The notes beneath the pieces are model-generated. The model did not search any database. It saw only the letters and a list, made by a program, of their open reading frames with translations, and had not been told where the DNA came from. A DNA stretch of 64,000 nucleotides from an uncultured delta proteobacterium (GTDB taxonomy: Bacteria > Desulfobacterota > Syntrophobacteria > BM002), in contig CAVQGX010000020.1 of assembly GCA_963712115.1 (NCBI GenBank), positions 187,880 to 251,879 on the forward strand, in the 5' to 3' direction. This document shows, piece by piece, positions 1 through 53,366 of the stretch (positions within the stretch are counted from its first letter, which is position 1; each line of letters opens with the position of its first letter). A program made the translations under genes and the position numbers.

Positions 1-125
1 ATCGAACAAGGAATGCCGAATATCGAAGTGATTACTTCATGATTCTGCGGTTCCTTGTTCTGCATTCGACCTGCCCGCCATCGTCCGCCTGAGGCGGACT
101 CAGGCGAGGCGGGCGGGATATTCAA
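1..125 (-). repeat. 'Empty' copy of the GAA/TTC 7-nt-periodic inverted-arm element, with a nested micro-palindrome insertion at 70-116
   Basis: Reverse complement of 1-69 matches 53283-53352 (GCAGAACAAGGAACCGCAGAATCATGAAGT..CACTTCGATATTC..ATTCCTTGTTCGA) and the arms around 4594-4974. Confidence 0.85.
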
Positions 126-2690: not shown

Positions 2691-4502
2691 ATGAGTCGAA
2701 GCCGGCTGGATTTAGATTATTTGATCGGTGTGCTGAGCAGACGCGGCCTGATTAGTGAACGCCAGGCGAAAGTCATCTCTCAAAAGGCGCCTGCCCAAAA
2801 GGAGAAGCTCACTCAGCTGCACAAGGTGAAGAGAGGGGGATTGTCCTCACTGAGGCGCGGAGATGAGGTCACGCCAGTGGATGTTCTGGCCTCCATGGGA
2901 TTGAAACTGGGCAAGGAAGAAAATGACCGTCTCAATGAAGAGGCCATCATGCGGATGGTGGCAGCTGACCTGGGGATGACTTTCAAAAAGATCGACCCAC
3001 TAAAGCTGGACCTGGAGTTGGTCACCCAGACCATTCCCAAAAACTTCGCCCTCAAACACATGGTCCTTCCGGTGGAGAGTTCCCTGGAAACGATCACCGT
3101 GGCAGTCTACGATCCTTTTAATCGTCAGGTTTTGGAGGACATCGAGCGAGTTACCAAAAAGCGGCTGGAAGCTCTCATCAGTACCAAGAGTGACATTGTC
3201 AAAACCATCTCTGAGTTTTACGGGTTCAAGAGCTCAATTGTTGCCGCCGACACTCAGTTGAGTAAGCCCTTAGTTGACCTGGGAAACCTGGAACAGCTCA
3301 CTCACTTGCAGGCGACAGAGGAGATCTCCTCGAGTGACCAGCACATAACCAATGCGGTAGATCACCTGTTCAGCTACGGTTTTGATCAGCGGGCTAGTGA
3401 CGTTCACATTGAGCCCAAGCGGGAAAAAACCATCGTAAGACTTCGCATAGATGGTTTGCTGCACACTATTTACCGGATACCCAAGAGTGTGCACCCGGCG
3501 ATTGTTTCCAGAATCAAGGCCCTGGCCCGGCTGGACCTTGCAGAGAAGCGCAGGCCGCAAGATGGACGGATCAAGGTGGAACGCAATGGCAAGGAGGCGG
3601 AAATTAGGATTTCAACCGTGCCGGTGGCCTTCGGTGAAAAGTTGGTGCTTAGAATCCTGGATCCTGACATTCTCTTGCAGGACCTTGAAGGATTGGGATT
3701 TTCATCAGCAGATCTCATCAAGTATCGTAGACTTATAGAGGTGCCCCACGGAATAGTTTTGATAACCGGTCCAACAGGAAGCGGAAAGACCACCACCCTT
3801 TACTCCAGTTTGCGCTTTCTCGCCTCCGAGGGCAACAACATCACCACTATTGAAGATCCCATCGAAATGGTGCACGAACAGTTCAACCAGATTGCCGTAA
3901 AGCCACGAATCAACCTTACCTTCGCCAATGTCCTGCGCCATGTTCTCCGTCAGGATCCCGACATCATCATGATCGGAGAAATGCGAGACCTCGAGACAGC
4001 AACCAATGCTATTCAGGCCGCCCTCACTGGCCACCTTGTTCTGAGTACTTTGCACACCAACGATGCAGCCAGCGCCATAACCCGTCTGATGGACCTGGGG
4101 GTGCAGCCCTTCCTGATCTCCTCAACCCTCACTGGTGTGGCGGCCCAGAGATTGGTGCGCAAGATTTGTCCTCACTGCGAAGAGTTATACAAGGTGAAGG
4201 TTGCTGATCTGGCTCCCCTGGCCTTGGGCAAGGACCCGGAAACCGAACTGGAACTCAAGATGGGCAAGGGTTGCCAACAGTGCCGCAACACCGGCTATCT
4301 GGGACGCAGCGGCATATTCGAGGTGCTGCCCATGAGCGAAAAACTGAGGGACCTGACCAACCGGAAGGGTTCACTGGCACAACTGCAAAAGGTCGCCTTG
4401 CACGAGGGTATGCTAACCCTCCAACAGTCCGCCGTCGACAAAATGCTACGGGGAGTGACGACTTTTGAGGAAGTGGTCAGGGTCACTCTGGGTGAAAGGT
4501 AG
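2691..4502 (+). CDS. gspE: GspE/PilB-family secretion/pilus assembly ATPase
   Basis: Walker A GPTGSGKTTT, TIEDPIE, LRQDPDIIMIGEMRD, TGHLVLSTLHTN, CPHC..CQQC zinc motif; AAGGAG RBS. Confidence 0.92.
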   Translation: MSRSRLDLDYLIGVLSRRGLISERQAKVISQKAPAQKEKLTQLHKVKRGGLSSLRRGDEVTPVDVLASMGLKLGKEENDRLNEEAIMRMVAADLGMTFKKIDPLKLDLELVTQTIPKNFALKHMVLPVESSLETITVAVYDPFNRQVLEDIERVTKKRLEALISTKSDIVKTISEFYGFKSSIVAADTQLSKPLVDLGNLEQLTHLQATEEISSSDQHITNAVDHLFSYGFDQRASDVHIEPKREKTIVRLRIDGLLHTIYRIPKSVHPAIVSRIKALARLDLAEKRRPQDGRIKVERNGKEAEIRISTVPVAFGEKLVLRILDPDILLQDLEGLGFSSADLIKYRRLIEVPHGIVLITGPTGSGKTTTLYSSLRFLASEGNNITTIEDPIEMVHEQFNQIAVKPRINLTFANVLRHVLRQDPDIIMIGEMRDLETATNAIQAALTGHLVLSTLHTNDAASAITRLMDLGVQPFLISSTLTGVAAQRLVRKICPHCEELYKVKVADLAPLALGKDPETELELKMGKGCQQCRNTGYLGRSGIFEVLPMSEKLRDLTNRKGSLAQLQKVALHEGMLTLQQSAVDKMLRGVTTFEEVVRVTLGER

Positions 4503-4532: not shown

Positions 4533-5007
4533 TCGAATATCGAATATCGAACAGCAGAACAAGGAACCGCAGAACGGAACAAGAAGTTTCGAATCATGAG
4601 GCTTTTTTCTTCCTTTTTTGAGCGGTTTTTATGCTTGTCACAAAAATCGAAATCAGCTCATTATTCTCTACAATCAGAGGTTCAAGTTTTGATGCTGGCT
4701 TTATCAATTTGGCCCTTACAATCATAAGCAACCATACCCTAGTCTCACGTAACTCTTTAAGTGATACTTTCATCTTGTGGATAAAGTCAGAACGAGATTC
4801 TGCGCTTTGAGCTTCACCATAGTTGGGAGCCGGGGAAGTGCCACAACGAATGAGTTGTCCTGCAATGTGATTTCCTACCCTCGTTTTTGGCAAGGATTCT
4901 GCTATACGAATAATCCGAATGGCAAAATCAATTAAGCGCTCCTCGAGGTCAAATATTCTGTTCTCCTTCGACATTCAAAATTCCTTGTTCGATATTCTGC
5001 GGTTCGA
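4533..5007. mobile_element. Four-helix-bundle gene cassette bounded by 7-nt-periodic inverted arms
   Basis: Left arm has GAA every 7-8 nt (4535-4599), right arm has TTC every 7-8 nt (4967-5007). Both arms are joined without the gene at 53275-53366. Confidence 0.7.
4594..4974 (-). CDS. Four helix bundle protein (23S rRNA intervening-sequence protein / bAvd-like family)
   Basis: DLEERLIDFA..QLIRCGTSPAPNYGEAQSAESRSDFIHKMKVSLKELRETRVWL family signature. Confidence 0.9.
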   Translation of the reverse strand: MSKENRIFDLEERLIDFAIRIIRIAESLPKTRVGNHIAGQLIRCGTSPAPNYGEAQSAESRSDFIHKMKVSLKELRETRVWLLMIVRAKLIKPASKLEPLIVENNELISIFVTSIKTAQKRKKKAS

Positions 5008-5027
5008 GTTGATACCTCCCTGCTGAA

Positions 5028-50185: not shown

Positions 50186-50211
50186 GTAGTGGCAGGGTTT
50201 ATCCCCGCCCG
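50186..50211 (+). repeat. GTAG-family REP
   Basis: GTAGTGGCAGGGTTTATCCCCGCCCG; contains the RAYT stop codon. Confidence 0.8.
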
Positions 50212-50684
50212 TAGAATTCTCGCCATTCAGGCCAAACTTGAGAGCCTGACCATGGATATTCTTTAGGGCTCTCAACTAATGTTGAACGAACTGGGTTTTC
50301 CCAAATGTAGCAAGCGACGTCTGACAATGATTCTTCCTTGCGCAACGCATGATCGAAAAAACTTCTTTGCCAGAAACGCTGCGAAGCTTTTATGTCACGC
50401 ACTTTTGGCGTCATTTTACCTTTGAAGAGACGGACAAAATCAACTAGCTGATTATCTTGCAGAAGCAAATGGATATGGTCAGGCATAATGCACCAAGCAT
50501 ATATCGTACTGCCACGAACCGATTCTAAGTCAAGCAGTATTTGAATCGCCATATCACATAGTTGAGGATGTAAAGCGAACCAAGGGTGTTTGCGGTGCGT
50601 CGTGAGGGTGATGAAGAAAGCATGCCTTTGACTGTAGACCGAGAGTGGAAGACGAATCCTTTTACGAACGGGGAAGCGTTCCAT
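50199..50684 (-). mobile_element. REP-associated tyrosine transposase (RAYT, Y1 HUH)
   Basis: RKRIRL, FFITLTT, CIMPDHIHLL (HUH), FWQRSFFDHALR, YIWENPV, YPWS. Confidence 0.92.
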
Positions 50685-50728
50685 AGAAATAGTCCAGGCC
50701 CTGATCCACCCCATGACTGTGGTATTTT

Positions 50729-53274: not shown

Positions 53275-53366
53275 ATCGAATATCGAACAGCAGAACAAGG
53301 AACCGCAGAATCATGAAGTGATCACTTCGATATTCAAAATTCCTTGTTCGACATTCTGCGGTTCAA
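53275..53366 (+). repeat. 'Empty' four-helix-bundle arm element
   Basis: GAATATCGAACAGCAGAACAAGGAACCGCAGAATCATGAAGTGATCACTTCGATATTCAAAATTCCTTGTTCGACATTCTGCGGTTC. Confidence 0.9.

Follow-up and report, generated by a model that had tools for sequence, protein, structure and literature searches.

A probable intervening-sequence-type element outside rRNA: an IVP/S23p gene within heptamer-array hairpin arms and its gene-less derivatives in a genome of the Syntrophobacteria

Intervening sequences (IVSs) that carry an open reading frame (ORF) are found in the 23S rRNA of Leptospira, Coxiella burnetii, Brucella, and Haemophilus (PMC4990558, and Ralph and McClelland 1993 as cited there). The IVS of Coxiella has a 28-bp terminal stem, is excised by RNase III, and contains tandem heptamers, in a number that varies between strains, in front of the ORF for the S23p protein. 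The same paper quotes the S23p protein of Xanthomonas as a pentamer. ORFs of the IVP family are scattered across several rRNA insertion sites in a preprint on rRNA insertions in the candidate phyla radiation (CPR), and the IVP/S23p domain is named in a figure legend of a CRISPR survey. ORF-bearing 23S rRNA IVSs are the closest known systems to the element described here, a cassette in which an IVP/S23p gene is enclosed by two inverted arms of periodic 7-8-nt units. The cassette lies in a stretch of 64,000 nucleotides from an uncultured delta proteobacterium (Desulfobacterota; Syntrophobacteria; BM002; GenBank assembly GCA_963712115.1, contig CAVQGX010000020.1, positions 187,880 to 251,879), referred to below as the window. 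The source genome of the window, denoted G000 (window: G000:C20:187880-251879), is a 4.9-Mb assembly of 70 contigs that is 94.4% complete. Short tandem repeats form the second background to this locus: TAACTGA heptamer repeats occur in Beggiatoaceae, Cyanobacteria, and Bacteroidetes, and for them 'no mechanism is evident' (PMC4679880); neither four helix nor S23 nor intervening sequence occurs as a term in that paper. The literature covered, which also includes a paper on UCYN-A and lacks most subscription journals, contains no account of such a cassette outside rRNA, of two-sided heptamer arms, or of gene-less derivatives.

The gene at the apex of the hairpin, its cargo, encodes a protein of the four-helix-bundle kind, 126 amino acids (aa) in length, and occupies positions 4594..4974 on the minus strand, as defined by the ORF list and two family profiles. 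Its 5' arm, which is the right arm on the plus strand (4964..5008), consists of six TTC-phased units with successive steps of 7, 7, 7, 7, and 8 nt. The 3' arm, on the left of the plus strand (4533..4599), is built from GAA-phased units of 7-8 nt whose successive steps measure 7, 7, 8, 7, 8, 5, 6, and 8 nt. Both arms are evident from the sequence, from inverted-repeat pairs that include exact complements of 10, 11, and 12 nt between the two arms, and from the RNA fold. The stop codon of the gene (plus-strand TCA, 4594-4596) is located inside the left arm, the start codon (plus-strand CAT, 4972-4974) inside the right arm, and the Shine-Dalgarno-like AAGGAA also within the 5' arm. An earlier reading of the sequence alone had described a gene set between GAA and TTC arms with 7-8-nt spacing and with its start and stop codons inside them, and this layout was confirmed. 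On one side of the cassette lies a T2SSE-type ATPase gene (2691-4502, E 8.5e-124), and on the other an ORF of 185 aa, previously labelled fimT, for which no Pfam match was obtained. Both flanks are protein-coding, and the cassette is not inserted in a 23S rRNA helix (25 or 45). It is a discrete unit of arms plus gene, roughly 450-475 bp in length.

The assignment of the protein to the 23S-IVP/bAvd-like family, proposed before any database had been consulted, is borne out by both profile and structure searches. The protein matches PF05635 in Pfam (E 4.5e-13) and TIGR02436 in NCBIfam (E 1.7e-23); beyond these, the two profile collections gave only a sub-threshold 'hypothetical protein' model and no transposase of a known class. 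The closest solved structure by sequence is PDB 2rld (E 1.4e-15), an entry with five chains. An AlphaFold (AF2) model calculated from 28 aligned relatives consists of four long helices with a predicted confidence (pLDDT) of 92. A Foldseek search with this model ranks 2rld first, with template-modelling (TM) scores of 0.78-0.90, followed by the Xanthomonas structure 2gsc and then by bAvd (4dwl) and the ribonucleoprotein of diversity-generating retroelements (DGRs), for which the TM scores are 0.56-0.61 (4dwl and the entries beginning with 8ub). Residues Q40, S47, N51, E54, and E77 are invariant across 8 aligned G000 paralogues, and Q40, N51, and E54 remain so after the addition of 20 subfamily members.

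Gene-less copies of the same hairpin are present in the window and throughout the genome. The copy at 53275..53366 (minus strand), upstream of a dnaX-like ORF, has the same arms joined directly by GAAGTGATCACTTC, a 14-nt dyad. A second copy in the opposite orientation (1..69, plus strand) is cut by the start of the window, its whole extent being G000:C20:187869-187942; its dyad has one mismatch, and a GC-rich doublet of repetitive extragenic palindromes (REPs) abuts it. An 18-nt arm core, allowing up to 3 mismatches, occurs 4 times in the window against an expectation of 0.04, and none of 100 shuffled sequences reaches this number. When the 92-nt empty copy was used as a BLASTN query against G000, 32 loci were obtained, namely the filled copy and 31 others, of which about 25 are near full-length hairpins without a gene and the remainder are partial or have different loops. 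The two empty copies seen in the sequence-only reading are thus real, but they are far from being the only ones. All 32 loci are located outside the rough ORF set or between ORFs (11 of them between convergent ORFs), and their orientation shows no preference with respect to the upstream gene (17/32). In the empty copies, a 6-nt dyad centre takes the place of the ORF body of the filled copy, while the stretches that bear the start and stop codons of the latter persist as arm units. The predicted RNA folds of the two window copies, on either strand, reach -26.1/-29.8 kcal/mol with z -3.6 for 53275-53366 and -25.3/-23.5 kcal/mol with z -4.4/-4.9 for 1-69.

The distribution of filled and empty copies among relatives was assessed in 18 other genomes of the family (17 of the same genus and 1 of a second genus) and in 12 genomes drawn from five further families within the same class. 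The empty hairpin occurs in 17 of the 18 family genomes (16/17 in the genus, 1/1 in the second genus) and in none of the 12 others; the number of hairpin matches per family genome, which is not a copy number, ranges from 0 to 35. At the gap that separates the 185-aa ORF from the ATPase gene and corresponds to the gspE-fimT locus of the sequence-only reading, the site is filled, empty, differently occupied, or bare depending on the species. It contains the GAA-type cassette in G000, and in G011 a GAA-type gene adjoins the homologue of the 185-aa ORF, the other side being masked. In G002, the gap comprises 34 nt with an ordinary terminator-like hairpin and neither a GAA hairpin nor a gene. In G007, the ATPase gene is followed by an empty GAA hairpin that is degenerate and has a GC-rich palindrome nested in it; the 15-nt left boundary preceding this hairpin is the same as in G000. 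Helix-bundle genes with other arms occupy the gap in the same orientation in G009 (ACTAGGC-type arms) and in G010 (GGCAGC-type arms, with an empty GAA hairpin alongside), and a GGCAGC-type gene adjoins the 185-aa ORF homologue in G008. The proteins encoded at the gap in G009, G010, and G008 have an identity of 19-21% to the window protein, which points to replacement and not to divergence in place. In G008, the GAA-type cassette, with a nucleotide identity of 86%, is located at another site, where it follows a purH-like gene, and an imperfect repeat of about 22 nt from the 3' end of that gene is present on both sides of the cassette. The cassette has therefore been relocated and replaced among species of the genus.

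Empty copies are also polymorphic, and one relative preserves an intermediate. G002 and G016 lack the copy at 53275-53366 at the corresponding orthologous site, where G007 has a different 8-mer hairpin. For an empty copy on contig C40, the same site is also occupied in G016 and G007. The orthologous gap of the window 1-69 hairpin measures 136 nt in G006 compared with 262 nt, and it does not align to the hairpin. The intermediate is a copy in G005 from which about 270 nt of the ORF body are gone, the two arms remaining together with roughly 35 codons at the start of the ORF and a few at its end; the same part of the query also matches short stretches in G009 and G010. The empties thus follow the pattern of internally deleted, non-autonomous derivatives, and the G005 copy shows that they can arise from filled ones. 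As a separate observation, in a comparison of G007:C103/C120 with G000:C20:187000-193500, the segment that extends from the first window hairpin as far as the ATPase gene is found in G007 on a contig that GAA hairpins bound, and the two outer flanks of this segment are found together on another G007 contig with changed relative orientation. A rearrangement whose breakpoints coincide with the hairpins may account for this.

Relatives outside the genus were sought with the single window protein in one genome per species; consequently, only this subfamily is sampled there. In total, 330 relatives were found, the best 80 of which are 65-90% identical. According to their record titles, these best 80 come from at least eight phylum-level groups, among them several orders of Planctomycetota, Desulfobacterales and other Desulfobacterota, Nitrospirota, Verrucomicrobia/Kiritimatiellales, Acidobacteriota, Gammaproteobacteria, Deferribacteres, and one CPR bacterium; most of the near relatives are in Desulfobacterales records. 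A pattern scan of viral contigs turned up no relative of the window protein, which does not prove that none exists. After the removal of 10 loci with contig ends, masked bases, or broken ORFs, 70 loci could be analysed. The upstream 11-nt arm core is present with at most 2 mismatches in 55 of the 70, the downstream core under the same threshold in 42, and both cores in 39. At least four GAA at 7/8-nt steps are found upstream in 47/70 loci and at least four TTC at such steps downstream in 42/70, and the complementarity score of the arms reaches 30 or more in 61/70. Unit variants that are complementary on both arms occur, for example, in L076, L053, L056, L095, and L099.

The conservation of gene and arms was profiled by pairwise identity in the 22 loci with an ORF of exactly 126 codons. 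Identity at codon positions 1, 2, and 3 is 0.79, 0.89, and 0.46, and the protein is therefore under purifying selection. In the 30 nt preceding the start codon, the identity is 0.64-0.75, and in the 30 nt following the stop codon it is 0.50-0.65; compared with 0.46 at third positions, the arms are therefore more conserved than silent sites. Beyond about 32 nt outside the gene, the identity falls to the random level of 0.25-0.29, so that the element has sharp outer limits. The gene and its arms are thus handed on as one unit, both by descent and by transfer between phyla, and selection acts on the arm sequence. The sharing of arm 7-mers on both sides rises with protein identity, from 0/55 pairs at 45-55% identity through 27% of pairs at 55-65%, 68% at 65-75%, and 82% at 75-85% to 100% at 85% or above, although the upstream flank in this count includes 60 coding nt, which inflates the high-identity bins. 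A side observation concerns an extra outer inverted pair (ATAAGCGCTAA / TTAGCGCTTAT) located about 50-100 nt beyond the arms in 12 of the best 80 loci. It is present on both sides in L036, L037, L039, L041, L044, L050, L054, and L093 and on one side in L040, L042, L043, and L064, spans records of Planctomycetota and Desulfobacterales, and has just two occurrences in G000.

The association between helix-bundle genes and inverted arrays extends to the rest of the genome. TIGR02436 has 14 matches in G000, corresponding to 13 genes (one of them split), and on inspection inverted 7-8-nt tandem arrays flank 13/13 of these. The arm unit is specific to each gene, examples being GAGGTCA, GGAGCAT, GGCATAG, GTCATTA, and GTCTAAA. 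Such arrays are abundant in general. Tandem Repeats Finder (TRF) detects 2177 arrays in G000 that have a period of 7 or 8 and do not overlap one another, about one per 2.3 kb, with a median length of 30 nt and 316 strand-collapsed unit types; 1868 of the 2177 are outside ORFs, and arrays make up 6.3% of non-ORF DNA. Close pairs of arrays are inverted in 198 cases and direct in 13, and many of the abundant unit types flank helix-bundle genes somewhere in the genus. Tandem heptamer repeats of this kind are also known from cyanobacteria as short tandemly repeated repetitive (STRR) sequences, to which the G000 arrays may be likened. Because the genome is saturated with 7-8-nt arrays, a control on random ORFs is necessary. 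The complementarity score between 100-nt flanks is 10 or higher for 10 of the 13 ORFs overlapping TIGR02436 genes, compared with 3.3% of 1500 random ORFs; arms are thus commoner at helix-bundle genes than elsewhere, contrary to the outcome that the sequence-only reading had named in advance as speaking against it. The other adverse outcome named there, a lack of filled/empty polymorphism, did not occur either. The three genes below a score of 10 are the split one, one that contains an internal stop, and one represented by an over-long ORF call. A score of at least 13 is reached by 60 of the 4497 G000 ORFs, of which 8 are TIGR02436 genes and several are transposases of insertion sequences (ISs) with inverted ends, which serve as positive controls. 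In G000, 10 of the 13 filled helix-bundle genes are located downstream of a co-directional ORF.

Several further features of these genes and arrays were noted. The split gene (G000:C14:38471-39062, L035) is interrupted by an ORF for an 84-aa GIY-YIG nuclease (PF01541, E 3.4e-15), and heptamer arms are retained outside both halves. At G000:C46:9395-9784, a gene for a 129-aa protein of the PD-(D/E)XK nuclease family (PF13366, E 9e-46) is placed between complementary periodic arms with a score of 17 and is thus another kind of small cargo enclosed by such a bracket. Most of the other G000 helix-bundle genes (C46, C30:122789, C20:78447, C18, C59, C3, C52, and C14) have an AAAGGGGCRCC-type motif about 5-15 nt before the start, and they share it despite a protein identity of 15-25% and differing arms. 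The window gene and the gene at C30:121568 are without this motif, and both start inside an arm unit. Several different arrays are chained within one G000 spacer, for example at C2:12661-12960 and also throughout the window. Eight contigs (C4, C5, C13, C48, C54, C58, C63, and C66) are nearly free of arrays and may mark foreign or mis-binned DNA. A dispersed repeat with the 21-nt inverted end TAGCCCGGATATTTCATGAAT, over which spurious low-complexity ORFs are called, was found at C66:2891-3235, C43:42446-42775, C64:32453-32767, C27:113050-113295, and C30:56479-56772. High-scoring 'ORFs' of 81-128 aa that have a common 21-nt inverted end were considered as a second gene cassette and rejected, the inspected translations being apparently spurious within another non-coding repeat.

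At the transcript level, the 5' and 3' arms pair with each other when the sense strand of the cassette is folded as RNA, in the minimum free energy (MFE) structure as well as in the centroid structure. The predicted stem consists of helices of 12, 9, and 8 bp, about 29 bp in all, and encloses the AAGGAA and the AUG. In the fixed register, 59% of the arm positions are paired; when the register is shifted, the share is 35-44% for 1-3 nt and 51-52% for 7 nt. These values are blurred by indels between loci and yield no clean number of compensatory changes. Contigs assembled from three RNA libraries contain empty-type hairpins together with flanking genes, which records their presence and not transcription, ends, or strand. 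One contig of about 90% identity in one metatranscriptome run spans part of the gene.

Taken together, the cassette is here judged, with a little more confidence than doubt, to be a free-standing selfish unit of the intervening-sequence type, in which an IVP/S23p gene occupies the apex of a long imperfect hairpin of 7-8-nt arrays. By analogy with rRNA IVSs that encode the same family, the stem of the transcript could serve as a substrate of an RNase III-type enzyme. Cutting of the stem would then render insertions in transcribed spacers or in rRNA harmless. Translation would be limited to nascent transcripts, before the 3' arm is made. Within the genome, the arms could mediate spread, whether through arm-directed recombination, through gene conversion of one array by a similar one, or through cuts made in the arms. 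Copies differ in the number of their terminal units, which agrees with exchange among similar arrays no less well than with cleavage at fixed ends. The weakest link of this explanation is the role of the protein; that its pentamer binds the periodic arm units and promotes spread is the favoured guess, though more doubtful than likely. An even broader proposal is speculative and must be regarded as rather unlikely. According to it, the IVP/S23p pentamer would be dedicated to a novel class of mobile elements that end in 7-8-nt arrays in place of simple inverted repeats, one unit being read per subunit, as might be suggested by the roughly 4-6 units of the arms and the 30-nt median of the arrays; such elements and their gene-less derivatives would be the source of the unexplained heptamer repeats in the intergenic DNA of this and many other bacteria, and the rRNA IVSs would be a special case.

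Several results weigh against the reading as a selfish intervening-sequence-type unit, or against parts of it. To our knowledge, no biochemical activity has been described for the IVP/S23p family. The S23p protein of Coxiella has been argued to be probably not made in vivo (PMC4990558). The fold of the whole 491-nt cassette is only modest (z -1.77), and among the arm mismatches on the sense strand, G-U pairs are not in excess over A-C (158 vs 133, with 491 other mismatches). Due to this missing strand signal, pairing at the RNA level is indistinguishable from pairing at the DNA level. Seven relatives (G005, G007, G010, G012, G014, G015, and G016) have 29-35 hairpin matches and no GAA-type gene in their incomplete assemblies, and the carriers of the gene G008 and G011 have just 5 and 2 matches. 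The complete lack of shared arms among pairs of 45-55% identity suggests turnover or capture of arms and not a tight co-evolution of protein and arms. Abundant empties without a cognate gene, together with the unrelated arms of moderately related proteins, argue against strict dependence on the protein. Of the full/empty element pair proposed earlier, the anatomy, the origin, and the polymorphism are supported, and a mobility driven by the protein is not. Finally, no target-site duplication is readable in three comparisons of occupied with unoccupied sites, the spacers being too diverged for junctions to be defined, and in a fourth occupied-site comparison the element is present in all 3 relatives that match the site.

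A further difficulty concerns the copy number, since 14 of the 31 gene-less loci in G000 share one longer composite context. In this composite, a GAGGTCA-type hairpin has in its loop the GAA hairpin along with about 70 nt of adjoining sequence, and in many copies this outer hairpin is itself situated within GGCATRG-type arrays. The common context implies that the composite was copied as a unit and that the GAA hairpins in it were multiplied as cargo. Much of the copy number of GAA hairpins in G000 is therefore second-hand, and the arms of one hairpin can carry another element as loop cargo. A filled helix-bundle gene with GAGGTCA-type arms is present in G000 at C30:124490. At least 5 copies have a GC-rich REP doublet inserted in their first GAA unit, always at one and the same position, and the remainder of the composite is likewise common to most of them. 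Three levels of nesting, with GAA in GAGGTCA-type in GGCATRG-type, are seen for example at C27:137423-137511 and C27:140470-140558. Two inverted composite copies on C27, 3 kb apart, bracket two ORFs.

Other explanations can be weighed against the same body of evidence. The hairpins may have come first, as host or independent repeat elements of a terminator-like or REP-like kind, generated by slippage or another process. The gene would then be a guest that reached hairpin apices by insertion or conversion, and the arms would be its landing pad and not a part of its own element. Such an origin would fit the excess of 2177 arrays and 198 close inverted pairs over just 13 helix-bundle genes, the nesting of hairpins in the loops of other hairpins, the three distinct helix-bundle lineages in one intergenic gap, the unrelated arm units of proteins that are 45-55% identical, and a number of empty copies that is independent of gene presence. 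It would also fit the 3' arm of the filled copy, which on inspection looks two-layered, with an inner arm like those of the cross-phylum relatives followed by a whole empty-type arm, and the outer inverted pair in 12 of the best 80 relatives. However, in at least eight groups of phylum level the subfamily is found with the same arms, and the similarity stops sharply at their outer ends, which indicates that the arms travel with the gene. The derivation of empties from filled copies, as documented in G005, and the start and stop codons built into arm units also speak against an independent origin of the hairpins, and this explanation is regarded as tentative and, on balance, unlikely. Improbable to a greater degree is a purely cis-acting host feature, in which the hairpins would be terminators or RNA-processing sites and the helix-bundle gene an ordinary small gene within one of them. 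The intergenic position of all empties, a third of which (11/32) are located between convergent ORFs, the co-directional ORF ahead of 10/13 filled genes, and the presence of hairpin sequences in contigs of three RNA libraries (presence only) are compatible with this. Close species nevertheless differ at the same site in presence and content, the cassette is 65-90% identical between phyla, and the empties are unbiased in their orientation to the upstream gene (17/32).

The two remaining explanations assign the movement to other enzymes. GAA hairpins could be elements similar to REPINs (hairpins formed by REP doublets) that are moved by a Y1 transposase of the host, of the RAYT (REP-associated tyrosine transposase) or IS200 type, with the helix-bundle gene as a passenger. 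G000 has 4 Y1_Tnp matches, among them a RAYT-like gene in the window (50199-50714, minus strand, Y1_Tnp E 6e-9) that is flanked by inverted GC-rich repeats starting with GTAG, similar palindromes being found, for example, at window positions 61-117; the REP doublet in the first GAA-arm unit of at least 5 copies also brings the two kinds of repeats together. Nevertheless, the GAA arms have no sequence relationship to the GC-rich REPs, and the doublet is an insertion inside the arm and not its end. Across phyla, the GAA arms accompany the helix-bundle gene and not a Y1 gene, a statement made without a Y1 scan of those loci or genomes. Only a slim chance is given to this explanation. The slimmest of all falls to the view that the protein serves a reverse transcriptase as an accessory factor of the Avd type, known from DGRs, and that the repeats were retro-copied. 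It draws on the likeness of the fold to bAvd and the DGR ribonucleoprotein (TM 0.56-0.61), but the 94.4%-complete G000, which carries 13 genes of this kind, has 0 matches to the reverse transcriptase profile PF00078, and no reverse transcriptase, template repeat, or variable repeat is located beside the window gene.

With the cassette read as a free-standing intervening-sequence-type unit, the locus ties together two problems within one genome. The structures of the IVP/S23p family were solved about twenty years ago (2rld, 2gsc), while its function has remained without an assignment, and the spacer heptamer repeats are unexplained. The locus also provides natural controls, namely a filled copy, an internally deleted copy, about thirty empties, an orthologous site in multiple states, and arms that move with the gene across phyla. 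For genome annotation, it is relevant that synteny between species appears to break at heptamer arrays.

The cassette can finally be compared with known systems. Like the heptamer repeats of PMC4679880, the arrays of G000 are intergenic, comprise few units, occur in several kinds per spacer, and have a patchy phylogenetic spread; those repeats, in contrast to the cassette arms, are mostly direct and are located upstream of start codons. With bAvd, the protein shares the four-helix-bundle fold, the solved relatives (2rld with five chains, and the S23p protein of Xanthomonas) being pentamers, but G000 lacks both a PF00078 reverse transcriptase and the template and variable repeats. RAYT/REP-REPIN systems similarly consist of a single-copy gene linked to many short palindromic intergenic repeats with the same sequence. 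Here, however, the gene does not encode a Y1 HUH enzyme and is placed inside one hairpin instead of between REPs, the GAA arms are unlike GTAG-type REPs, and a separate RAYT-like gene with its own REPs is present in the window. The likeness to RAYT/REPIN that had been suggested from the sequence is thus an analogy, and that to pairs of ISs and miniature inverted-repeat transposable elements (MITEs) goes further: terminal inverted arms are common to one gene-bearing and many gene-less copies, a deletion intermediate exists, and copy number and insertion are polymorphic between related genomes. It differs from IS/MITE pairs in that the protein has no transposase fold, a target-site duplication is not readable, the arm ends are fuzzy owing to the varying number of units, and half of the empties were spread inside a larger composite. 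The IVSs of 23S rRNA share most with the cassette, since in both a PF05635 protein is encoded by an ORF within terminal inverted repeats that form a long stem and tandem heptamers are located by the ORF; the IVSs are likewise suspected to be selfish and mobile, by a mechanism that is not known. In contrast to them, the cassette is located outside rRNA, both of its arms are periodic 7-8-nt units throughout, and it is accompanied by 31 gene-less loci. The cassette is best read as an intervening-sequence-type element outside rRNA with MITE-like derivatives.

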